In this document: positions 1 to 35,782 of the stretch, piece after piece
Layout of the letters: every line of letters begins with the position of its first letter
Position numbering within the stretch: the first letter of the stretch is position 1
Source of the DNA: a virus
Lineage: Duplodnaviria; Heunggongvirae; Uroviricota; Caudoviricetes
Reading direction: 5' to 3' (one strand)
Virus record (IMG/VR): IMGVR_UViG_2651869830_000003
Length of the DNA stretch: 35,782 nt
Position numbers and translations under genes: made by a program
The notes under the pieces: model-generated
Databases searched by the model: none
What the model saw: only the letters and a program-made list of their open reading frames with translations
Told to the model about the DNA's origin: nothing

Positions 1-333
1 ATGGGGGAAGGTGAGGTGAATAAAATAGCTGCTATATCATTAATTAGTGTTTTTCTTATGTCTGGTTGTGCTGTGCATAATGATGAGACAAGTATCGGTA
101 AATTTGGCCTTGCATATAAAAGTAATATTCAGCGTAAACTCGATAACCAATACTACACCGAAGCCGAAGCTTCTTTAGCCAGGGGTAGAATATCTGGTGC
201 AGAAAATATAGTAAAAAATGATGCAACTCATTTCTGTGTTACTCAGGGCAAAAAAATGCAAATAGTTGAGCTGAAGACAGAAGGTGTAGGATTACATGGT
301 GTCGCTCGTCTGACATTCAAATGTGGAGAGTGA
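1..333 (+). CDS. Small putative lipoprotein, host gene flanking the prophage; possibly yegR by position only. Start uncertain: ATG at 1 or GTG at 16, which would give 105 aa.
   Basis: ORF track 110 aa. N-terminal hydrophobic stretch ending in a lipobox-like LMSGC. Moderate GC. Lies outside attL. Confidence 0.4.
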   Translation: MGEGEVNKIAAISLISVFLMSGCAVHNDETSIGKFGLAYKSNIQRKLDNQYYTEAEASLARGRISGAENIVKNDATHFCVTQGKKMQIVELKTEGVGLHGVARLTFKCGE

Positions 334-3909: not shown

Positions 3910-4181
3910 GTATTCGTATTGAAATTGGCGAACGTTATGTCGTTACCAGTGACAGCTTCCAGTTTATTCTCCACGAGAAAAAGAGAGCGGAAAGCGGTAA
4001 AAACGCCGGTCAGGAATGGCTGGCGGTGGTTGGTTATTACCCGAAATTAAGCCAGCTTGTTTCCGGCCTGATGCATCACGATATTCTGACCGGAAGCGCA
4101 AAGTCTTTTGCTGATTTAAACGCGCAGGTTGAGCAACTCAGCAGGCGTTGTTCAGAGGCTTTTGGCTCATATGGCCGTTAA
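3906..4181 (+). CDS. Early hypothetical protein, 91 aa, P2 orf83-like.
   Basis: Overlapping-stop operon organisation with ggaga SD. Confidence 0.5.
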   Translation: MSIRIEIGERYVVTSDSFQFILHEKKRAESGKNAGQEWLAVVGYYPKLSQLVSGLMHHDILTGSAKSFADLNAQVEQLSRRCSEAFGSYGR

Positions 4182-6456
4182 AGCCTCCGGGCGTTTTGTC
4201 CCTCCGTCAGCATTTTCCGCAGGCACCGGTAAGACGTTTGCCGGTGCTTATGCATGGAACGCGCCACGCGAGGCTGTCGGGCGCGAAAGACCCCTTACAC
4301 GTGACGAGATGCGTCAGGTGCAAGGTGTTTTATCCACGATTAACCGCCTGCCTTACTTTTTGCGCTCGCTGTTTACTTCACGCTATGACTACATCCGGCG
4401 CAATAAAAGCCCGGTGCACGGGTTTTATTTCCTCACATCCACTTTTCAGCGTCGTTTATGGCCGCGCATTGAGCGTGTGAATCAGCGCCATGAAATGAAC
4501 ACCGAAGCGTCGATGCTGTTTCTGGCTGAGCGTGACCACTATGCGCGTCTGCCGGGGATGAATGACAAGGAGCTGAAAAAGTTTGCCGCCCGTATCTCAT
4601 CGCAGCTTTTCATGATGTATGAGGAACTCTGCGATGCCTGGGTGGATGCGCATGGCGAAAAAGAATCGCTGTTTACGGATGAGGCGCAGGCGCATCTGTA
4701 TGGTCATGTTGCTGGCGCTGCACGTGCTTTCAATATTTCCCCGCTTTACTGGAAAAAATACCGTAAAGGACAGATGACCACGAGGCAGGCATATTCTGCC
4801 ATTGCCCGTCTGTTTAACGATGAGTGGTGGACTCATCAGCTTAAAGGCCAGCGTATGCGCTGGCATGAAGCGTTACTGATTGCTGTCGGGGAGGTCAATA
4901 AAGACCGTTCTCCTTATGCCAGTAAACACGCCATTCGTGATGTGCGTGCGCGCCGCCAGGCAAATCTGGAATTTCTTAAATCGTGTGACCTTGAAAACAG
5001 GGAAACCGGCGAGCGCATCGACCTTATCAGTAAGGTGATGGGCAGTATTTCTAATCCTGAAATTCGCCGGATGGAGCTGATGAACACCATTGCCGGTATT
5101 GAGCGTTACGCCGCAGCAGAGGGTGATGTGGGGATGTTTATCACGCTGACCGCGCCGTCAAAGTATCACCCGACACGTCAGGTCAGAAAAGGCGAAAGTA
5201 AAACCGTCCAGCTAAATCACGGCTGGAACGATGAGGCATTTAATCCAAAGGATGCGCAGCGTTATCTCTGCCGTATCTGGAGCCTGATGCGCACGGCATT
5301 CAAGGATAATGATTTACAGGTCTACGGTTTGCGTGTCGTCGAGCCACACCACGACGGAACGCCGCACTGGCATATGATGCTTTTTTGTAATCCACGCCAG
5401 CGTAACCAGATTATCGAAATCATGCGTCGCTATGCGCTCAAAGAGGATGGTGACGAAAGAGGAGCCGCGCGAAACCGTTTTCAGGCAAAGCACCTTAACC
5501 GGGGCGGTGCTGCGGGATATATCGCGAAATACATTTCAAAAAATATCGACGGCTATGCACTGGATGGTCAGCTCGATAACGATACCGGTAAGCCGCTTAA
5601 AGATACTGCCGCGGCTGTTACCGCATGGGCGTCAACGTGGCGCATCCCGCAATTTAAAACGGTTGGCCTGCCGACAATGGGGGCTTACCGTGAACTACGC
5701 AAATTGCCTCGCGGCGTCAGTATTGCTGATGAGTTTGACGAACGCGTCGAGGCTGCTCGCGCTGCCGCAGACAGTGGTGATTTTGCGTTGTATATCAGCG
5801 CGCAGGGCGGGGCAAATGTCCCGCGCGATTGTCAGACTGTCAGGGTCGCCCGTAGCCCGTCGGATGAAGTTAACGAGTACGAGGAAGAAGTCGAGAGAGT
5901 GGTCGGCATTTACGCGCCGCATCTCGGCGCGCGTCATATTCATATCACCAGAACGACGGACTGGCGCATTGTTCCGAAAGTGCCGGTCGTTGAGCCTTTG
6001 ACTTTAAAAAGCGGCATCGCCGCGCCTCGGAGTCCTGTCAATAACTGTGGAAAGCTCACCGGTGGTGATACTTCGTTACCGGCTCCCACACCTTCTGAAC
6101 ACGCTGCAGCAGTGCTTAATCTGGTTGATGACGGTGTTATCGAATGGAATGACACGGAGGTCGTGAGGGCGCTCAGGGGGGCATTAAAACACGACCTGAG
6201 AACACCAAATCGTCAGCAAAGAAACGGAAGCCCGTTAAAACCACATGAAATTGCACCATCGGCCAGACTGACCCGGTCGGAAAGAATGCAAATTACCCGT
6301 ATCCGCGTTGACCTTGCTCAGAACGGTATCAGGCCGCAGCGATGGGAGCTTGAGGCGCTGGCGCGTGGCGCGACCGTAAATTATGACGGGAAAAAATTCA
6401 CGTATCTGGTAGATGAGGAGTGGCTGGAGGATATAACGGATATTAAGTGGAGCTAA
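4171..6456 (+). CDS. A: Rolling-circle replication initiator A (HUH endonuclease), 761 aa.
   Basis: ATG at 4171 gives exactly 761 aa as in P2 A (the track start at 4129 is TTG). HUH-like HWHMMLF and paired-tyrosine GYIAKYISK motifs. Confidence 0.9.
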   Translation: MAVKASGRFVPPSAFSAGTGKTFAGAYAWNAPREAVGRERPLTRDEMRQVQGVLSTINRLPYFLRSLFTSRYDYIRRNKSPVHGFYFLTSTFQRRLWPRIERVNQRHEMNTEASMLFLAERDHYARLPGMNDKELKKFAARISSQLFMMYEELCDAWVDAHGEKESLFTDEAQAHLYGHVAGAARAFNISPLYWKKYRKGQMTTRQAYSAIARLFNDEWWTHQLKGQRMRWHEALLIAVGEVNKDRSPYASKHAIRDVRARRQANLEFLKSCDLENRETGERIDLISKVMGSISNPEIRRMELMNTIAGIERYAAAEGDVGMFITLTAPSKYHPTRQVRKGESKTVQLNHGWNDEAFNPKDAQRYLCRIWSLMRTAFKDNDLQVYGLRVVEPHHDGTPHWHMMLFCNPRQRNQIIEIMRRYALKEDGDERGAARNRFQAKHLNRGGAAGYIAKYISKNIDGYALDGQLDNDTGKPLKDTAAAVTAWASTWRIPQFKTVGLPTMGAYRELRKLPRGVSIADEFDERVEAARAAADSGDFALYISAQGGANVPRDCQTVRVARSPSDEVNEYEEEVERVVGIYAPHLGARHIHITRTTDWRIVPKVPVVEPLTLKSGIAAPRSPVNNCGKLTGGDTSLPAPTPSEHAAAVLNLVDDGVIEWNDTEVVRALRGALKHDLRTPNRQQRNGSPLKPHEIAPSARLTRSERMQITRIRVDLAQNGIRPQRWELEALARGATVNYDGKKFTYLVDEEWLEDITDIKWS

Positions 6457-6526
6457 TGATAATTTAACTCCTCGGAATAGAATGTTATGTTCGTTCTTGA
6501 TAACTGATAATGAGTGATTTAAAAAA

Positions 6527-6552
6527 AGCCATGTTATGTTACTAACATGGCT
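6527..6552. terminator. Bidirectional rho-independent terminator between the convergent A and reverse transcriptase genes.
   Basis: 10-bp perfect stem agccatgtta/taacatggct with a 6-nt loop, A7 tract on one side and T tract on the other. Confidence 0.55.
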
Positions 6553-6560
6553 TTGGGATA

Positions 6561-8108
6561 TTAATTGCTGTGCTCTTTAAAGAATAGATTAACTTCTTCA
6601 GGTGTTATATTGTCATCCATTTTATCAAATTTATCTGTGTCAACGATTTTTGTTTTTCTTAGCAAGGATAATATCTTGGCTTTATTGGGACTCGTTTCTT
6701 TTCCTTGGATCCAGTCAATATTCCATAAATTATTTACAGAAAATGTTTTCTCTTTTGTGAGTTCATCATTTATACGGACGCATAGAGCTGACTTATAAGA
6801 TTTATTCCACTCTAGGTTTATTTTTGCTTGAGTTCGCTGAAACCATATCTCAAGCATTTCTGTATTGGGTTGTTTATCCAGTTTTTTATGGAGTTGTTCT
6901 AGCTTTGTTAATTTTTTTTGGGTGTCATCACCATAAAGAAAACTGAGGAGTTTTGAGAAAATTGCCGTTCCTACTGGGTACGTTGTAGGGTTTTTTGCCA
7001 TGATGCTTGAAATAATACCAAGCATGGCATCAACCTGTTGGCCGTTATCTTTAATTGCCTTTCGCTTAAACAAATTCCTAAGAAAATCATTTAGATATCT
7101 AACGGTTGTTTTCGAGTTTGGATGCTTAAGTGAAAATAAATATATTGAATAGAGCATTTTCTGGAGTGACTTATGTCTTTTTTCTTTGATGTAGTCTTTT
7201 TTGGCTTGTTTCAACGAATGAAGTATGATGTCTTCATATAGTTCAGTTTTTTTTGAGTTTAGATCTAAACCAAAATCGCCCAACACATTGACTAAACATT
7301 TTGATATTATGTCTAAATCATCTTTGCTATTAGAGAAGATCCGGTAATCATCACGGTAGCGTACTACCTTGTAGTTTATTATTTTAAGTTCGTTAGTTTT
7401 TTTTCTTAATTCTATATCGATTTGACCCAAGATAAGCTCAGCAAATGTATCCATCAATGTGCTGCCGAGTGGAATACCATTTGTCTGGTTGTTCATCATC
7501 ATTTGAATGTGGCTGTCAATTAATCCCCCTGGGTTATTTTTGTTTTTTTTCTTCTTAGCATCTTCTTTTGATATGAATACCCATTCAAAACTATGAGTAT
7601 ATATTGATGGGTAGAAGTTTGAGATGTCAGTGCTGAACATGAATTCGTATTCAAGAGCAAGGGCAAGGCTTTTTTGTTCAAAATCTTCCCACCAATTCAT
7701 TACAGACGCAGCAATGTTTGACGAGTTGTCTTTTCTGACGGGGATGCTTGAACATGTAAAAAGATCGTTTGATTCAAAAGATTTGAATTTTTCTGTTATG
7801 ATTTCCCAGGTTGTTGGTGCTGTGATTTTTCTACAGAAGTAGACATAATAAAGGGGATTTATAAGTGTTATCCTACGCCAGCTATATAGACCATCTTTAC
7901 TGAGAAGCACCTCATAATTGATATCTTTACCCATCAGCTCCTTGGCGGTTGGTTCAATTTTAATTTTTTTGTTATGGATAGATGAATTAATATCATTTAA
8001 TAATGTGGTGAAATTAATATAAGCCGGTAATTCTAAGGTTGTGTAGGAGTCATGGCGAAGAAAATATGACAGTGCTTCTTCACTGGTTAGTTCATATACT
8101 TTTTTCAT
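6561..8108 (-). CDS. Reverse transcriptase, 515 aa, single-gene Abi-type (probably Abi-P2 class), with a C-terminal alpha-helical domain of unknown function.
   Basis: RT motifs in the N-terminal half: FSTDISNFYPSIY, GIPLGSTLMDTFAELILG, and YRDD catalytic box at 7347-7358 on the minus strand. Strongly AT-rich. Occupies the P2 tin/old site. Confidence 0.8.
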   Translation of the reverse strand: MKKVYELTSEEALSYFLRHDSYTTLELPAYINFTTLLNDINSSIHNKKIKIEPTAKELMGKDINYEVLLSKDGLYSWRRITLINPLYYVYFCRKITAPTTWEIITEKFKSFESNDLFTCSSIPVRKDNSSNIAASVMNWWEDFEQKSLALALEYEFMFSTDISNFYPSIYTHSFEWVFISKEDAKKKKNKNNPGGLIDSHIQMMMNNQTNGIPLGSTLMDTFAELILGQIDIELRKKTNELKIINYKVVRYRDDYRIFSNSKDDLDIISKCLVNVLGDFGLDLNSKKTELYEDIILHSLKQAKKDYIKEKRHKSLQKMLYSIYLFSLKHPNSKTTVRYLNDFLRNLFKRKAIKDNGQQVDAMLGIISSIMAKNPTTYPVGTAIFSKLLSFLYGDDTQKKLTKLEQLHKKLDKQPNTEMLEIWFQRTQAKINLEWNKSYKSALCVRINDELTKEKTFSVNNLWNIDWIQGKETSPNKAKILSLLRKTKIVDTDKFDKMDDNITPEEVNLFFKEHSN

Positions 8109-8298
8109 GAGGATAATGCTCTTGTTAGGGATGATGTTTTTTTATCATGAAATTGAAGGTATTGCGAGAGGCAGTAGTGCATTTGACTGCGTCTATTTGC
8201 ATGTGTTTTTGATAACGGTTTTTGTAATCAGGATGGAGCGCAGCACTGAGGAGCGGAACATAATGCAACTGCATTAAAACCGACCCATGAAGCGGGCG

Positions 8299-8317
8299 GG
8301 CGAGGCGGGGAAAGCAC
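8299..8317. other. cos site: 19-nt cohesive-end sequence ggcgaggcggggaaagcac.
   Basis: Matches the P2 cohesive-end sequence as I recall it. Lies at the expected place between the tin/old-equivalent island and Q. Confidence 0.55.
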
Positions 8318-8467
8318 TGCGCGCTGGCGGTGGTGCTGATTTTATTTTTTCAGCGTCTCAGCGTCTCAGCGCGTCGTGACGGCGTTTGGATTGTGCGCCG
8401 GGGCGTTGGTGTGTCTGCGGGGTGTTTTGTGCGGTGGTGAGCGTGTGAGGGCGTGATGACGGGGTGT

Positions 8468-8489
8468 AAAAAAGCCGCCCGCAGGCGGC
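8468..8489 (-). terminator. Rho-independent terminator of the P-Q operon.
   Basis: gccgcc-cgca-ggcggc hairpin immediately after the Q stop, followed on the minus strand by a U6 tract. Confidence 0.55.
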
Positions 8490-8494
8490 GATGT

Positions 8495-9529
8495 TCAGCC
8501 GTTGTCAGTGTCCAGTGAGTAGTTTTTAAAGCGGATGACCTCCTGACCGAGCCAGCCGTTTATCTCGCGGATCCTGTCCTGTAACGGGATAAGCTCATTG
8601 CGGACAAAGACCTTTGCCACTTTCTCAATATCACCCAGCGACCCGACGTTCTCCGGCTTGCCGCCCATCAACTGAAAGGGGATGCGGTGCGCGTCCAGCA
8701 GGTCAGCGGCGCTGGCTTTTTTGATATTAAAAAAATCGTCCTTCGTTGCCACTTCACTGAGCGGGATAATTTTAATGCCGTCAGCTTTCCCCTGCGGGGC
8801 ATAGAGAAACAGGTTTTTAAAGTTGTTGCGGCCTTTCGACTTCACCATGTTTTCGCGGAGCATTTCGATATCGTTGCGATCCTGCACGGCATCAGTGACG
8901 TACATGATATATCCGGCATGAGCGCCGTTTTCGTAATACTTGCGGCGGAACAGCGTGGCCGACTCATTCAGCCAGGCAGAGTTAAGGGCGCTGAGATATT
9001 CCGGCAGACCGTACAGCTCCTGATTAATATCCGGCTCCAGCAGGTGAAACACGGAGCCGGGCGCGAAAGGTGTCGGCTCGTTGAAGGACGGCACCCACCA
9101 GTAAACATCCTCCTCCACGCCACGGCGGGTATATTTTGCCGGTGAGGTTTCCAGTCTGATGACCTTACCGGTGGTGCTGTAACGCTTTTCCAGAAACGCA
9201 TTACCGAACACCAGAAAATCCAGCACAAAGCGGCTGAAATCCTGCTGGGAAAGCCACGGATGCGGGATAAATGTTGAGGCCAGAATATTACGTTTGACGT
9301 AAATCGGTGAGCTGTGATGCACGGCAGCACGCAGGCTTTTTGCCAGACCGGTAAAGCTGACCGGTGGTTCATACCATCTGCCGTTACTGATGCACTCGAC
9401 GTAATCCAGAATGTCACGGCGGTCGAGTACCGGTACCGGCTCGCCAAAGGTGAATGCTTCCATTTTCGGGGCGCTGGCGGTCATTTTTTTGGCCGCAGGT
9501 TGCGGTGTTTTCCCTTTTTTCTTGCTCAT
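8495..9529 (-). CDS. Q: Portal protein, 344 aa.
   Basis: Length equals P2 Q. Directly downstream of the terminase gene on the same strand. Confidence 0.9.
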   Translation of the reverse strand: MSKKKGKTPQPAAKKMTASAPKMEAFTFGEPVPVLDRRDILDYVECISNGRWYEPPVSFTGLAKSLRAAVHHSSPIYVKRNILASTFIPHPWLSQQDFSRFVLDFLVFGNAFLEKRYSTTGKVIRLETSPAKYTRRGVEEDVYWWVPSFNEPTPFAPGSVFHLLEPDINQELYGLPEYLSALNSAWLNESATLFRRKYYENGAHAGYIMYVTDAVQDRNDIEMLRENMVKSKGRNNFKNLFLYAPQGKADGIKIIPLSEVATKDDFFNIKKASAADLLDAHRIPFQLMGGKPENVGSLGDIEKVAKVFVRNELIPLQDRIREINGWLGQEVIRFKNYSLDTDNG

Positions 9530-17778: not shown

Positions 17779-18852
17779 TTACTTGCCATTTTTCAATGCG
17801 TTGATTAACGATGCTATTTGTTCAATACCATCAAATGTAGATGGTATCTTATCATCGGATAGCATGATGTTTGAAAATACTACGTCTTCAAATTTTGAAA
17901 GCGCTTCCGGATTGTTTTTCCTTATCTCTGAGGAATAGTCGCTATAACTCTGAATGAACTGACAAAGGCTCTTTCTGAGTTCTATTTGCATAATCTGAGT
18001 TCGTAACGATATATGATTTATCAGTACAACTCTAAAGTAATACATGAAAATCAATGTAACTGATGCAAAAGGTAGTGCTGACATAAAATATGTGGCAGCA
18101 TTTGTCGTTTCGAGAGTTGGTAATTTATGCATTCCATAGTATATCAGCGGGGAGGGAATGATTATAGCCAAGATGATAAGAATTATTCTTGATAGCATGA
18201 TTTCACTTTCTTTCTTTTTGCCAAGTGAATTAAAGCCATCAAACAATCCAACAAAATTAAATGCGACCTCATACCCTTTTAATGACTCTTTAATTGACTC
18301 TATTTTGGCATGTTGCTCCTTTAAGAAGGAGTCGCACTTTTCGAAAAATTGACGCCCTTCGTTTAAACTATCAATGTATTTTTTATATGTGTCAACATTG
18401 CTGGAGCTTAAAACTTCTTTAACCATTGCTAATGGCAGTTCTCTAAGAGAAAAGTCTATCTGTGCTCTGCTCCGCTCATCGAATTCATTATAGTTATACA
18501 GAGCAAAATCCTTGATGGTTCTTAGTGGTGAAAAGTGAGACTCTATTTCCGGAGAGAGAATGCTTGGTTCAATGATAAATCTAAAAAAGCAAGTGAATAT
18601 AAGGTTGATGCTGTTGTTATCTTCTCCCTTTTCTCTTAAGAAACTTTTAAAGGTGTCGCCAATCATAGCAATGTTGTACTGGGATTTTTTGTCCCAATCT
18701 TCAGGGTTTTCGGAAATGAAGTTTATTGCTTGAGCAATTATTTTGTTTCTGTTTGATTCAAAGTTTGTGCCGGGAGTCAGCGTGTTCAAAAAGACCAGAT
18801 AATCTTTGAACAATTCTTTCATTGTTTCTGACGAGAAAAAGTAAGTACTCAT
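17779..18852 (-). CDS. Hypothetical membrane protein with two predicted transmembrane helices in its C-terminal third; AT-rich accessory (moron) gene at the P2 orf30 site. Start uncertain: ATG at 18852 preferred over GTG at 18948.
   Basis: Strong AT-rich compositional break inside a GC-rich tail operon. Opposite strand to neighbours. Hydrophobic segments ILSRIILIILAIIIPSPLIYYG and ATYFMSALPFASVTLIFMYYFRVVLI. Confidence 0.6.
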   Translation of the reverse strand: MSTYFFSSETMKELFKDYLVFLNTLTPGTNFESNRNKIIAQAINFISENPEDWDKKSQYNIAMIGDTFKSFLREKGEDNNSINLIFTCFFRFIIEPSILSPEIESHFSPLRTIKDFALYNYNEFDERSRAQIDFSLRELPLAMVKEVLSSSNVDTYKKYIDSLNEGRQFFEKCDSFLKEQHAKIESIKESLKGYEVAFNFVGLFDGFNSLGKKKESEIMLSRIILIILAIIIPSPLIYYGMHKLPTLETTNAATYFMSALPFASVTLIFMYYFRVVLINHISLRTQIMQIELRKSLCQFIQSYSDYSSEIRKNNPEALSKFEDVVFSNIMLSDDKIPSTFDGIEQIASLINALKNGK

Positions 18853-18938
18853 AATGGATTTTGTTGTCCCTTGTTGTTCTGTGCACCAGAAATCGTGGTG
18901 TGATTTACTTCGAGATTGTACAGAATCATTATTATCGA

Positions 18939-19568
18939 ATGAATGCACAATACAATGAAATTCTTCGCTTTATACGCAATATGATTCGCACTGGCATTAT
19001 CGTCGAAACCGACCTTAATGCCGGTCGCTGCCGTGTGCAGACCGGCGGCATGTGCACCGACTGGCTTCAGTGGCTGACCCATCGCGCTGGGCGTTCGCGC
19101 ACATGGTGGGCACCTTCCGTGGGGGAACAGGTGCTGATTCTGGCCGTGGGCGGTGAACTCGACACGGCGTTCGTTCTGCCGGGGATTTATTCCGGCGATA
19201 ACCCAGCGCCGTCTGCGTCGTCTGATGCCCTGCATATCCGTTTCCCTGACGGGGCGGTGATTGAGTATGAACCCGAAACCAGTGCACTCACGGTAAGCGG
19301 AATTAAAACGGCCAGCGTGACGGCTTCTGATTCTGTTACTGCCACGGTGCCGGTGGTCATGGTGAAAGCATCAACCCGCGTCACCCTGGACACACCGGAG
19401 GTGGTCTGCACCAACAGGCTGATTACCGGCACGCTGGAAGTGCAGAAGGGCGGGACGATGCGCGGCAACATTGAACACACCGGCGGTGAACTCTCATCAA
19501 ACGGTAAGGTACTGCATACCCATAAACACCCCGGCGACAGCGGCGGCACAACCGGGAGCCCTCTATGA
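18939..19568 (+). CDS. V: Baseplate spike/assembly protein V, 209 aa.
   Basis: ATG at 18939 (MNAQYNEIL). Length close to P2 V (211 aa). First gene of the V-W-J-I-H-G operon. Confidence 0.85.
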   Translation: MNAQYNEILRFIRNMIRTGIIVETDLNAGRCRVQTGGMCTDWLQWLTHRAGRSRTWWAPSVGEQVLILAVGGELDTAFVLPGIYSGDNPAPSASSDALHIRFPDGAVIEYEPETSALTVSGIKTASVTASDSVTATVPVVMVKASTRVTLDTPEVVCTNRLITGTLEVQKGGTMRGNIEHTGGELSSNGKVLHTHKHPGDSGGTTGSPL

Positions 19569-24218: not shown

Positions 24219-25310
24219 GTGGGCGGCGAAACTAAGAATATTGATGAGATTGCAGGTATCATTTCCAGTAGAATTTTTGATGAGTTAGGCTGGAAAACCC
24301 AAAATACAACGGATATAAGTTGGGACTGTTGTTTGAGATCTCATCTAAACGCTAAACAACTTTTATCTGAAAACCCAAAAAAAACTCATCCTACGGATGT
24401 AGTCTTCAAATATAAAGATCCTTATTCAGATATAACTCAGTATATACAAACAGATTTAAAATCTTATTGTGCCAGCACGCTTGACGGTACAAAATCAATA
24501 TTGAACACTGTACGAAGTTTATCACAACAGGTAGCTTGCGCGCCAAGAAGTCCTGAGTGGCGGCGTCTATTTGTTGACAGCACAAATGAGAAATATCAAG
24601 TTAACGGCCTACTTTTTATATATAATCATGACAATAAATATGACTCTGATTTAATTGAGAAATTAAATGGAGCAGCCACAGCAAGTTATGATTTTCCAGA
24701 GAACTCTGTGATTGCCGTTTTTGACCCAACTATGATCAGATTTTTACTAGATGTTACAGAACACATCGAGACTAGAAGAGGAATTACTGACAAAGTAACA
24801 CAAGAAACAAATATGTTATGGCAAAAAATTCCTGAGATAGAGAACTGTACATATTTTTACCCTGACAAACATAATAAAATAGCAACGAAAGGGAAAATCC
24901 TTCCAGCCACAATTGAAATGATAACATCTGGGATGATTTTTTACTCATATGAACACGAATATATTAGAAATGATGGTGGCGATAGAATAAGAAATAAAAT
25001 ATTGAATATATTCTGGAAGGAAGAGGTTGATTCCAGTAACCACTTTATATTTCTTTTAGAGTATATATTTAACTATCAATTACTCAATCAATTTGACAAA
25101 ATATTTGTTATAACTCCGTTCTCATCACACTCAAGCATTCATTTGCAATCCGCCATTAATGATTACATAGGAATATATTCTTTCACTCAATCTCATATAG
25201 AAACGTTAAAGGAAAAAATAGTATCCATTCCTTTTGTTAATCAAAAGCTATCTATATTTGAGTACCAGGTTGCCAGCAAGCAGGTGAATAGAAAATGTCA
25301 CTTTTCATAA
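24219..25310 (+). CDS. Hypothetical protein, 363 aa, first gene of an AT-rich three-gene accessory operon; GTG start. No recognisable domain; a weak PD-(D/E)xK-like pattern sits near the N-terminus.
   Basis: Strong SD ggagga 5-10 nt upstream of GTG at 24219. AT-rich. In the P2 Z/fun slot between G and FI. Confidence 0.7.
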   Translation: MGGETKNIDEIAGIISSRIFDELGWKTQNTTDISWDCCLRSHLNAKQLLSENPKKTHPTDVVFKYKDPYSDITQYIQTDLKSYCASTLDGTKSILNTVRSLSQQVACAPRSPEWRRLFVDSTNEKYQVNGLLFIYNHDNKYDSDLIEKLNGAATASYDFPENSVIAVFDPTMIRFLLDVTEHIETRRGITDKVTQETNMLWQKIPEIENCTYFYPDKHNKIATKGKILPATIEMITSGMIFYSYEHEYIRNDGGDRIRNKILNIFWKEEVDSSNHFIFLLEYIFNYQLLNQFDKIFVITPFSSHSSIHLQSAINDYIGIYSFTQSHIETLKEKIVSIPFVNQKLSIFEYQVASKQVNRKCHFS

Positions 25311-25320
25311 GGAGTATGAC

Positions 25321-26568
25321 ATGAATAAATATCAAGCTACGTTGTTTTCAAACGAAAGTGACATTTATACCGCCCTCCACTCTAACAGTGCAAAAATCAC
25401 AGATGTTACATTAAGGAAAATCGCCTTCAATAGAGGGATAATTTTCCCATCTAACTTATCAAAAGAGGTATTGATAGAAAAATTATCAGACCTGCCATTT
25501 TCATATAATCACATCAGAGAAGTACAAGATAAACTGGCAACCAAACCCAGCCAAGACGTCTTCTCAGTAAAACGTATATATGAAGAATTTGATATAGAGA
25601 AACTCTATGACGTTGTAAACAAAGTGAAAGAAAATAGACCCAAGTTGCTAGGGCATGAGAAAATTGATCATTACTCAGGCTTGCAAACCTATCATATATC
25701 TATTGATTATACTGAGTTTGATTTTAGAAGGGGTAAGTTTCAGCAGAAAAAATTGTACAGTGGGAGTATAGTTTTTATAGTAAAAAAAGGATATGTTTCA
25801 GTAAGATATAACTATACGCCACGCATTTCAGAAATTCTCAAGCAAATAATTGATACATATTCATCAACAGTTTGTAACAACATAGTTGTCAACGAAATAG
25901 ATTTATCAAGTATCGTCGATACAGATCTTAGGAATATTTTTGCTGTTCATCTTTATGATTTTGATGGAAATTATAAAAAAACAGGACTTGAATATGCTGG
26001 TCTTGAAAAGGTTAGAGTAAGCAGAATAAAAACATCTCTGGATATTAATGGAGATAATCTCGAAGGAAATAATAACGAAGAAACACAAGAGTTATTAAAC
26101 AAGATTTCACCTTCTACAGATAACGAAAATGATGATGACATTAATAATCAGGAAATGGCATCTGACGATGATGAAAACCTAACTTTTAACATTAACAATG
26201 CCGCGTATGATGGCCTATCATTAGTGAACGCACCTCAAATTAAGGAACTGTGCCGTGATGGGTTTTATCGAAGCTTAATTCGATGGAAGTCATTTTCCTC
26301 AGTAGTTAAGAATCATACTATAACTTTTGAACTTAGTTTCGATGATAAATATCTTGGGAAAAATATAAAATTCAGAGCGTTATACAAAGAAAGCAACTCT
26401 GCATCCGCAGAGAGAGAAAAACTCAGTGACGCAGACTTTGATCAAGTCATGAAACAATTAGAAGATAAAATATTTTTGATTAATGACTTTATTATCGAAG
26501 AGCATACCAAGCGATACCCAGTAACGAAAGCTATGTCTTGCGAGACTTTGAATCAGGAGGCTGGATGA
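25321..26568 (+). CDS. Hypothetical protein, 415 aa, second gene of the accessory operon; contains a roughly 45-aa acidic low-complexity linker.
   Basis: aaggag SD 7 nt upstream of ATG at 25321. Same strand and composition as the flanking cassette genes. Confidence 0.7.
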   Translation: MNKYQATLFSNESDIYTALHSNSAKITDVTLRKIAFNRGIIFPSNLSKEVLIEKLSDLPFSYNHIREVQDKLATKPSQDVFSVKRIYEEFDIEKLYDVVNKVKENRPKLLGHEKIDHYSGLQTYHISIDYTEFDFRRGKFQQKKLYSGSIVFIVKKGYVSVRYNYTPRISEILKQIIDTYSSTVCNNIVVNEIDLSSIVDTDLRNIFAVHLYDFDGNYKKTGLEYAGLEKVRVSRIKTSLDINGDNLEGNNNEETQELLNKISPSTDNENDDDINNQEMASDDDENLTFNINNAAYDGLSLVNAPQIKELCRDGFYRSLIRWKSFSSVVKNHTITFELSFDDKYLGKNIKFRALYKESNSASAEREKLSDADFDQVMKQLEDKIFLINDFIIEEHTKRYPVTKAMSCETLNQEAG

Positions 26569-27221
26569 TGATAAAGGTAAAAATTTATAAAGCAGAAAAG
26601 GATATAACTAAAAGTGAGTTATTACATAAAGTAAATGACAACCTCTATGATGAAGATAAAGGATATGGTTTTCAAATCATTAATAACTCTGAAGTGCTTA
26701 AACTAAGATTTACCATGAGAAGCATTAGCAAGCAAAGCTTAGAATATGCTAATGGCGAGCGTTCAGAGGTTGAAATAGCAACTTACTTAAATGTGGACTT
26801 TGGCGTCAGACAAGGGAAAAAAATCATACTATATGCCACTAATCCTCCATTAAGTATGAAAGTGCCTTATACTATGGTGCAAAAACTATTTGGTGAAGAT
26901 AGTGGCTTGAGACCAGTAGAATTTGATCTGAGAAAAATTGTAAATGGTCTTTCTGAGGGCTTTGACATCAAGATAAAATCCATGTCTCTATCTAATATCT
27001 CTGTTGATCCTTTTACTTTAGCAAAGACAAAAATAGTAAGCTCAAAGAATCTCCAAGAAATTTATCAGAATAAATACATGAATAGTTCGGCCGTTTTTGA
27101 TTCCGTACATTTCTTCGTTAACGGAATTGAAACGGAATTATCTAGGACGGGTAGATTCCGTGTGAGAGAGAGTCAGCTTCCAACACTTTTATCCATCTTA
27201 GAAACTCTCAGAATTTTGTGA
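26565..27221 (+). CDS. Hypothetical protein, 218 aa, third gene of the accessory operon.
   Basis: ATGA stop/start overlap with the upstream gene (translational coupling). ggagg SD. The track start at 26538 is trimmed to the ATG at 26565. Confidence 0.65.
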   Translation: MMIKVKIYKAEKDITKSELLHKVNDNLYDEDKGYGFQIINNSEVLKLRFTMRSISKQSLEYANGERSEVEIATYLNVDFGVRQGKKIILYATNPPLSMKVPYTMVQKLFGEDSGLRPVEFDLRKIVNGLSEGFDIKIKSMSLSNISVDPFTLAKTKIVSSKNLQEIYQNKYMNSSAVFDSVHFFVNGIETELSRTGRFRVRESQLPTLLSILETLRIL

Positions 27222-34420: not shown

Positions 34421-35782
34421 TCACTTACCGTGTGGGTTACGCGTGGTTTCCCCGGAGAAATTACGCATCAGCAGAGCGTAATTGAGCTCAAGATCCTGCG
34501 GGACCGGGAGCCACACAGTATAACCATCGCCTGGTGCGACCGGCATCGCTTCACCTTTGGCGTTTTCCATGTGCTCAAGGGTAAAGTTAATGTTGCCTTG
34601 CGGCGTCATCAGCTCAAGGCTGTCGCCAACGGAGAATTTATTTTTCACCGCTACCGCCGCGAGGTCCCCCTTGCGCTCACCGGTAAACTCACCAACAAAC
34701 TGCTGGCGGTCAGAAACTGAATAACCGTATTCGTAGTTCTGATAATCGTCGTGAGTATGACGACGCAGGAAACCTTCGGTATAGCCACGATGCGCCAGAC
34801 CTTCCAGAGTTTCCAGCAGGCTGGTATCGAACGGTTTGCCCGCAGCGGCGTCATCGATAGCTTTACGGTAAACCTGTGCGGTGCGTGCGCAATAGTAGAA
34901 AGATTTAGTACGGCCTTCGATTTTCAGCGAATGCACGCCCATTTTGGTCAGGCGTTCTACATGGGCGATGGCGCGCAGATCTTTCGAGTTCATGATGTAA
35001 GTGCCGTGCTCATCTTCAAACGCGGTCATATACTCGCCCGGACGCTGGGCTTCTTCGATCATAAACACTTTGTCGGTTGGCGCGCCGATACCCAGCGTCG
35101 GCTCAACATTTTGCACCGGAATCGGCTCGTACTTGTGTACGATGTTGCCAACGTCATCTTCTTTCCCTTCCTGGACGTTGTACTCCCAGCGGCAGGCGTT
35201 GGTGCAGGTACCCTGGTTCGGATCGCGCTTGTTGATATAGCCAGAGAGCAGGCAGCGACCGGAGTAGGCCATGCACAGTGCGCCGTGAACGAAGATCTCG
35301 ATCTCCATATCCGGCACCTGATTGCGGATCTCTTCAATCTCTTCCAGCGACAGCTCGCGAGAGAGGATCACGCGGGTCAGGCCCATTTGCTGCCAGAATT
35401 TCACCGTCGCCCAGTTTACGGCGTTAGCCTGCACCGAGAGGTGGATCGGCATTTCAGGGAAGTGCTCACGCACCAGCATAATCAGCCCTGGATCGGACAT
35501 AATCAGCGCATCCGGCCCCATTTCCACCACCGGTTTCAGGTCACGGATAAAGGTTTTCAGCTTGGCGTTGTGCGGTGCAATGTTGACCACGACATAAAAC
35601 TTTTTCCCCAGCGCGTGGGCTTCATTGATGCCGAGCTGAAGATTTTCGTGGTTGAATTCGTTGTTGCGCACACGCAGGGAGTAACGCGGCTGGCCCGCAT
35701 AAACAGCATCTGCGCCATAAGCGAAAGCGTAACGCATATTTTTCAGCGTTCCCGCCGGGGAAAGGAGTTCCGGTTTAAACAT
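34421..35782 (-). CDS. yegQ: Peptidase U32-family protein YegQ (TrhP-like), 453 aa; host gene flanking attR.
   Basis: N-terminal sequence MFKPELLSPAGTLKNMRYAFAYGADAVYAG recognised as YegQ. Host-like GC content. Outside the prophage. Confidence 0.7.
   Translation of the reverse strand: MFKPELLSPAGTLKNMRYAFAYGADAVYAGQPRYSLRVRNNEFNHENLQLGINEAHALGKKFYVVVNIAPHNAKLKTFIRDLKPVVEMGPDALIMSDPGLIMLVREHFPEMPIHLSVQANAVNWATVKFWQQMGLTRVILSRELSLEEIEEIRNQVPDMEIEIFVHGALCMAYSGRCLLSGYINKRDPNQGTCTNACRWEYNVQEGKEDDVGNIVHKYEPIPVQNVEPTLGIGAPTDKVFMIEEAQRPGEYMTAFEDEHGTYIMNSKDLRAIAHVERLTKMGVHSLKIEGRTKSFYYCARTAQVYRKAIDDAAAGKPFDTSLLETLEGLAHRGYTEGFLRRHTHDDYQNYEYGYSVSDRQQFVGEFTGERKGDLAAVAVKNKFSVGDSLELMTPQGNINFTLEHMENAKGEAMPVAPGDGYTVWLPVPQDLELNYALLMRNFSGETTRNPHGK

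Follow-up and report, generated by a model that had tools for sequence, protein, structure and literature searches.

The stretch of DNA analysed here (the window, 35,782 nucleotides) carries the gene abi-P2 on the minus strand at positions 6561-8108. The gene starts with ATG and encodes 515 amino acids plus a stop codon. Given the base composition of its strand, an open frame of 515 codons would arise by chance with a probability of about 4e-18. In-frame stops lie immediately 5′ of it in the upstream translation, so 515 amino acids is the maximum length of the product within the window. The gene is rich in A and T, with 33.7% GC for the gene itself and 34.1% for positions 6457-8262, against 50.9% for the remainder of the window. 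The first-pass annotation, made from the letters alone, had described a 515-residue minus-strand protein in a sharply AT-rich island, and both parts of that description are borne out.

The gene is flanked by landmarks of a P2-like prophage. To its left lies the P2-type replication gene A (4129-6456, plus strand). To its right lies a P2-type cos core (8299-8317, plus strand), an exact match to GGCGAGGCGGGGAAAGCAC, which we take to be the P2 cohesive end, followed by the portal gene Q (8495-9529, minus strand) and then the terminase gene P. In a sister prophage that uses the same attachment site, yegR, this slot holds a gene for an 864-aa SIR2-family protein instead of abi-P2. Similarity between the two prophages ends at 6429 and restarts at 8263, which delimits the swapped module as 6430-8262, a 1.83-kb cargo segment of about 34% GC. 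Its left junction falls inside gene A, in the final nine codons, and its right junction 36 nt short of cos. The interval originally proposed, 6457-8298, corresponds exactly to the distance from the gene A stop to cos; the exchanged segment itself is the one given by the sister comparison. The slot between gene A and cos is where P2 has old and tin, and is a documented hotspot for anti-phage cargo (PMC9122126), just as the first-pass annotation had placed it.

The protein has the features of a reverse transcriptase (RT) followed by a helical domain. An RT-like domain comprising fingers and palm, without a thumb, occupies approximately residues 1-300 (7209-8108, minus strand), as delimited by the Pfam family RVT_1 and by identity to the solved structure 7R08. 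The RVT_1 match spans residues 142-300 and scores 40.7 bits against a cut-off of 29.6. Asp161, in the motif STDISNFY (codon at 7626-7628, minus strand), is by the general RT motif pattern presumably the metal-binding aspartate of motif A. The YRDD catalytic box that had been noticed at the outset lies at residues 251-254 (7347-7358, minus strand). A conserved arginine in Y-x-DD, at the position that a hydrophobic residue takes in other RTs, is the hallmark of Abi-P2 (PMC2602772), and the window protein carries it. Residue mapping places the priming tyrosine of Abi-P2, Tyr61 in the numbering of the P2-EC30 protein, at native Tyr30 (8019-8021, minus strand), in the fingers loop where Abi-P2 has it. 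In the same native numbering Tyr15 corresponds to the non-essential Tyr46 of EC30, and Tyr251, the tyrosine of YRDD, to Tyr282, the DNA-stacking residue that is the counterpart of Tyr245 in AbiK (PMC9508834). Tyr30, Asp161, the YRDD box and Tyr251 are all preserved.

The remainder of the protein, approximately residues 301-515 (6564-7208, minus strand), is assigned to a C-terminal helical (alpha-solenoid, or alphaRep) domain through its identity to 7R08. This part had been described as a domain of about 250 residues with no recognisable motif and of unclear function. No Pfam family scores above its cut-off in residues 301-515, so the absence of a motif stands; the domain is nearer to 215 residues long, and its fold is known, being an 11-helix alpha-solenoid in the 98.8%-identical protein of 7R08 (PMC9508834). 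Residues 301-510 align to the helical domain of that structure without gaps and with two substitutions. By this correspondence, an all-helical domain is confidently predicted to replace the thumb in the window protein, as it does in Abi-P2.

The identity of the gene follows from several searches. Among solved structures, residues 1-510 match residues 32-541 of the chain in PDB 7R08, without gaps and at 1128 bits; the protein crystallised in that entry is Abi-P2 of the E. coli prophage P2-EC30 (PMC9508834). Within that construct 504 of 510 residues are identical (98.8%), and over the whole protein 509 of 515. The six differences from the EC30 protein (L69V, T99A, D183E, N189S, A351T and E420D) are all conservative and all distant from the catalytic and priming residues, and two of them (EC30 positions 214 and 220) belong to the loop of EC30 residues 214-222, which is not ordered in the crystal. 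At the DNA level the gene is 98.6% identical to GenBank AM157365, annotated as "ORF570, reverse transcriptase" (protein CAJ43154). The PADLOC profile AbiP2 scores 536.7 bits (1.3e-161), with residues 1-513 covering profile positions 4-487 of 489, and the next profiles fall far behind (Drt6 150.7, UG14 144.3, Drt4 about 134 and AbiK 101.5 bits). The 514-position profile phrog_12132 matches residues 1-515. The suggestion that the gene probably belongs to the known Abi-P2 group, rather than to a new class, can accordingly be sharpened: the window gene is essentially the type member. We put at about 95% the probability that it is a functional-looking allele of Abi-P2, carried as swappable cargo of a P2-like prophage between gene A and cos; no observation speaks against the identification. 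The literature already covers the gene and the slot it occupies, along with its phenotype, enzymology and structure.

Of 5426 complete E. coli genomes, 10 have a full copy of abi-P2, and every copy inspected occupies this slot; one further copy is interrupted by an IS21-family element. A 2026 survey lists AbiP2 among the systems found in P2 and not in P4 (PMC13586616). In two genomes retron Ec48, consisting of an RT and a membrane effector, stands beside abi-P2 in the same hotspot.

A good deal is known about the enzyme from the EC30 allele. The EC30 protein is trimeric and could potentially assemble into hexamers; it has palm and fingers and no thumb, and the 11-helix alpha-solenoid at the thumb position forms one wall of the channel for nascent DNA and part of the trimer interface (PMC9508834). 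Given dNTPs alone, the enzyme yields DNA of about 40 nt as well as DNA longer than 100 nt (PMC9508834). Synthesis is primed by the protein on the hydroxyl of Tyr61, yields single-stranded DNA (ssDNA) with neither a template nor a nucleic-acid primer, and is abolished by the substitution Y61F (PMC9508834). Abi-P2 is purified free of nucleic acid, unlike AbiK and DRT4 (PMC9508834). According to secondary sources, EC30 orf570 excludes phage T5 (PMC9508834, PMC8632793) and resistance to T5 is lost when the YRDD region is deleted (PMC8632793); the latter source also credits the original Abi-P2 report with RNA-templated RT activity. In view of that activity, untemplated synthesis may be an incomplete account of what the enzyme does in vivo. 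The protein-priming and catalytic-site experiments proposed in the first-pass annotation have thus largely been published for the EC30 allele. With 98.8% identity and all key residues intact, the window protein can be expected with high confidence to share the biochemical properties of its EC30 counterpart, and we assume, from this similarity, that the window allele would synthesize ssDNA in a protein-primed, untemplated manner; it may likewise exclude T5.

The DNA around the gene was searched for companions. An intrinsic terminator with a 12-bp stem, a 6-nt loop and a T run (6525-6554, minus strand) starts 7 nt past the stop codon, and the 3′ spacer that contains it (6457-6560) folds far better than shuffled versions of itself (z = -3.8, 0 of 200 shuffles as good). 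On the other side, between the ORF start and the module boundary, lies an island-specific leader or promoter region of 154 nt (8109-8262, minus strand). Scanning the coding strand of this leader with the sigma-70 consensus gave no promoter match, and its folding does not stand out from that of shuffled sequences (z = -1.5). An Rfam search over 6000-8800 at a permissive E-value returned no match, whether to a retron RNA, an intron RNA or any other family. A protein scan of genome contigs gave one partial locus, in a Martelella alba assembly, where a 76%-identical N-terminal fragment lies at a contig end; one such fragment does not suffice for statistics on covariation or context. Its leader has no similarity to that of the window. 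With one credible gene in the 1.83-kb module by the ORF list, no Rfam match and an unremarkable leader, abi-P2 appears to stand alone, neither a partner gene nor a non-coding RNA (ncRNA) having been seen, although an undescribed small RNA may lie within the module. This agrees with the published placement of Abi-P2 among the stand-alone Class 1 UG/Abi RTs, in which an RT domain is fused to an alpha-helical repeat domain (PMC9226505).

These observations bear on the best-surviving alternative, namely that in vivo the protein is a true RNA-templated RT that copies host, phage or local RNA, as DRT2, DRT9 and retrons do, and that untemplated synthesis is a side activity. Several UG/Abi systems use neighbouring ncRNAs as templates, which gives the idea some footing, as does the RNA-templated activity mentioned above. 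We nevertheless regard it as improbable. The region from 6000 to 8800 offers no ncRNA candidate; the 154-nt leader, with its ordinary folding score, is not conserved in the 76%-identical homologue, and the 3′ spacer amounts to a terminator only. The enzyme, moreover, has no thumb with which to bind a duplex and works with dNTPs alone (PMC9508834), and the ncRNA-dependent systems belong to class 2, whereas Abi-P2 belongs to class 1.

The start of the gene deserves a closer account, as it is here that the window allele departs from the published one. Upstream of the ATG, at a distance of 29 nt, lies a homopolymer run of seven adenines (A7; 8137-8143, minus strand); in P2-EC30 and in four further genomes the run has six (A6). 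Among the six other copies examined, A6 was found in five (EC30 and these four genomes) and A7 in one, whose protein differs from that of the window by one amino acid. A6 keeps the upstream frame open as far as an ATG 55 codons upstream, which explains both the 546-aa coding sequence in GenBank and the name "ORF570"; A7 closes the frame, so that the 31- or 55-codon N-terminal extension annotated in EC30 cannot be made from the window allele. What is left of the extension is a frame-shifted remnant, an upstream ORF of 49 amino acids (8125-8274, minus strand) that has no PHROG match and is probably not a gene. A phase-variable switch at the A-tract, alternating between long and short isoforms, was considered but not adopted: A6 and A7 track two protein haplotypes and are not independently variable, and a run of six or seven bases is short for efficient slippage.

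Four lines of evidence suggest that the conserved protein is the 515-aa form. In 7R08 the first 31 residues of the 546-aa construct cannot be seen (PMC9508834); RefSeq annotates the same 1548-nt coding sequence (515 aa) in the sister genomes, those with A6 included; the PHROG profile has 514 positions; and the distant Martelella alba homologue shares the start codon and begins with the same Met-Lys-Lys. This entails a small correction, in that the conserved protein begins at Met32 of the 546-aa GenBank/PDB numbering and its priming residue is native Tyr30.

A slightly less probable alternative than RNA templating is that the gene, though intact, is silent or inactive in the window prophage, through its A7 leader or its six substitutions, and is cargo in decay. 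The A7 run does rule out the 546/570-aa form used in published experiments, the coding strand of the leader lacks a consensus promoter, and in one E. coli genome the IS21-family element interrupts the gene. Decay of this kind would sit poorly with a reading frame that is fully open in AT-rich DNA and with substitutions that are conservative only and spare the catalytic and priming residues. The lost extension coincides with the crystallographically invisible residues of the long form, the same Met start is shared by the 76%-identical homologue, the PHROG profile and RefSeq, and a second genome maintains the A7 allele with a single amino-acid difference. We therefore favour, at a far higher probability, the reading of the gene as a functional-looking Abi-P2 allele.

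The remaining alternative, that the gene is no defence gene but a retroelement in decay, its RT left over from a retron or group II intron whose RNA is gone, is refuted for practical purposes. The weak RT-domain similarity to retron St85 (29.3 bits) and to the group II RT/maturase TIGR04416 (39.1 bits) falls far below the respective NCBIfam cut-offs, 235 and 300. PADLOC's model of retron RTs reaches 38 bits, while AbiP2 and 7R08 match over the full length. Rfam found neither msr/msd nor intron RNA, and, although two E. coli genomes have retron Ec48 next to abi-P2, the window has no retron and such neighbouring retrons elsewhere have an RT gene of their own. The profile scores supply the phylogenetic placement that the first-pass annotation had asked for, and put the RT with AbiP2 and away from the retron and group II clades, which that annotation had named as an outcome that would overturn its assignment.

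How Abi-P2 recognizes infection and stops it is a question about the family rather than about the window locus, and the literature searched reports neither a trigger nor an escape mutant. A possible answer comes from DRT4 and DRT6, which make ssDNA constitutively; the host exonuclease ExoI/SbcB trims it until the T5 protein ORF55 shields its 3′ end, whereupon toxic ssDNA accumulates (PMC12783706). The authors of that study explicitly ask if the mechanism extends to Abi RTs (PMC12783706). By analogy with DRT4 and DRT6, Abi-P2 would make protein-linked ssDNA constitutively, and host 3′-5′ exonucleases such as ExoI/SbcB would keep it short. Upon infection, a phage ssDNA-binding protein would shield the 3′ end of the ssDNA, which would then accumulate and lead to cell death or arrest ahead of phage release. 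The outcome would be protection of the lysogen population and of the resident prophage.

That Abi-P2 follows this DRT4/DRT6-type axis (also that of DRT9), with trimming by ExoI/SbcB and stabilisation by the SSB-like ORF55 of T5, is a tentative proposal, to which we give clearly less than an even chance. A trigger of the DRT4 type is suggested because DRT4 and DRT6, class-1 relatives of Abi-P2, also protect against T5, and because their profiles rank among the next-best PADLOC matches of the window protein. Against it stand the low identity between Abi-P2 and DRT4 (the NCBIfam Drt4 model scores 117.6 bits against a cut-off of 450), the nucleic-acid-free state of purified Abi-P2 (PMC9508834) and the RT activity on RNA described in the original report (PMC8632793). 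If the proposal were true, a mechanism already described would gain one more family, itself already known, and no new kind of system would be established; the A7 allele would then show, in addition, that the 515-aa core is active without the N-terminal extension present in all published constructs. Experiments in the style of those on DRT4 and DRT6 can now be applied to the family.

As an annotation, the result is useful in marking the window as a P2-like prophage with Abi-P2 in the gpA-cos hotspot. As a discovery it carries little weight, being a correct but ordinary find.

Its place among known systems can be summarized as follows. Nearest is Abi-P2 of P2-EC30 itself, which shares with the window gene the YRDD box, the priming tyrosine, the gpA-cos hotspot and the AT-rich composition. 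AbiK of Lactococcus lactis (plasmid pSRQ800; PDB 7R07) is likewise a Class 1 UG/Abi RT built of an RT-like and a helical domain, performs tyrosine-primed untemplated ssDNA synthesis and assembles on three-fold symmetry (PMC9508834). The two resemble each other at about 32% identity in the RT domain only, their helical domains being without sequence similarity, and the AbiK profile of PADLOC scores 101.5 bits on the window protein where AbiP2 scores 536.7. AbiK, in addition, is a hexamer purified with attached DNA (PMC9508834), whereas Abi-P2 is a nucleic-acid-free trimer; it is plasmid-borne in Gram-positives and is countered by mutations in the phage protein Sak, an SSAP (PMC9508834).

DRT6 (UG12) and DRT4 (UG15), class 1 RTs that each consist of a single gene, confer protection against T5, synthesize random ssDNA by protein priming and are oligomeric (PMC12783706). 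They are families distinct from Abi-P2, though among its next-best PADLOC matches, and the scores of the window protein against NCBIfam equivalog models (Drt4 117.6 against 450, Drt3b 111.8 against 350, and Drt5 likewise far below its cut-off) indicate a class-level relation only. The priming tyrosine of DRT4 lies in the palm (PMC12783706), that of Abi-P2 in the fingers, and for DRT4 and DRT6 the trigger is established as T5 ORF55 acting with host ExoI (PMC12783706). Finally, old and tin of P2 occupy the same slot as abi-P2 and play the same role, the prophage-encoded exclusion of competing phages (PMC9122126), through proteins and mechanisms unrelated to Abi-P2. The slot between gpA and cos is a site of exchange, in which abi-P2 gives way to a SIR2 protein in the yegR sister prophage and is joined by retron Ec48 in others.

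The integration site of the prophage lies between yegR and a gene for a 453-aa U32-family peptidase (window positions 1-333 and 34421-35782), the latter being probably yegQ, judging by its size and position. Since host genes are present at both flanks, the P2-like prophage, about 34 kb long, is contained in the window in full. A sister prophage (locus L009) shares both the backbone and the yegR attachment site, and in it an 864-aa SIR2-family protein (L009 11149-13743) replaces Abi-P2, the 515-aa reverse-transcriptase-like defence protein of the window. This exchange of cargo on a shared backbone defines clean module boundaries. Comparison with the sister prophage places the left junction of this module within the replication endonuclease gene A, and the swapped segment takes in the last ~9 codons of that gene (6430-6456). 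Therefore, the end of gene A varies between prophages that carry different cargo.

An A-tract shortly before the start codon of abi-P2 (8137-8143) is polymorphic in length (A7 or A6). The A6 allele leaves a 31/55-codon N-terminal extension of abi-P2 open, and the A7 allele, which is the one found in the window, closes it. The opening of this extension by A6 accounts for the 546-aa numbering used in GenBank and PDB, as well as for the name ORF570 given to the published protein of prophage P2-EC30.

Abi-P2 genes were also found in several other E. coli genomes. In strains PSS-11 and UPEC-245U, the retron Ec48 reverse transcriptase and its membrane effector come next after the Abi-P2 gene in the gpA-cos hotspot, the slot between gene A and cos (L002 4479-6367 and L006 4692-6580, respectively), and these two hotspots thus hold two RT-based defences in tandem. 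In strain PCP06022 (L008 4104-8404), the Abi-P2 gene is split by an IS21-family element (ISEc12 istA/istB), and it is annotated as two fragments. An assembly that bears the name of the alphaproteobacterium Martelella alba contains an Abi-P2 homologue with 76% identity (L004 170-4681). Only the N-terminal 227 aa of this homologue are present, the rest being cut off by the contig end. It does not lie in a P2 hotspot, and genes for an AAA ATPase and an S8 subtilase are located upstream of it. The gene could have entered a defence island by horizontal transfer, or the assembly could be contaminated.

A third cargo island of the window prophage, besides the Abi-P2 module and the three-gene cluster described below, is formed by an AT-rich ORF of 389 aa (17779-18948, minus strand, 35% GC), which sits among tail and baseplate genes running on the opposite strand, at what we take to be the orf30 position of P2. 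Searches of Pfam, PADLOC and NCBIfam returned no match for this ORF, and its sole match was phrog_9373 (8e-134), a family of unknown function.

Three further AT-rich genes on the plus strand (24219-25310, 25321-26568 and 26538-27221; 33-35% GC) form a cluster at 24219-27221 that separates the sheath gene FI from a gene for tail-fibre assembly, presumably at the Z/fun position of P2. In profile searches, none of the three matched Pfam or NCBIfam, and the PADLOC models matched were Hp1 (5e-41), Hp2 (7.5e-11) and Hp3 (4e-11). Hp1/Hp2/Hp3 probably represent a known three-gene anti-P1 system. That system, which is domain-less, was described from a P2 hotspot other than the Z/fun position (Rousset 2022; PMC9122126). 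Given how weakly Hp2 and Hp3 are matched, the cluster may be a divergent variant of the three-gene anti-P1 system, residing in a different hotspot.
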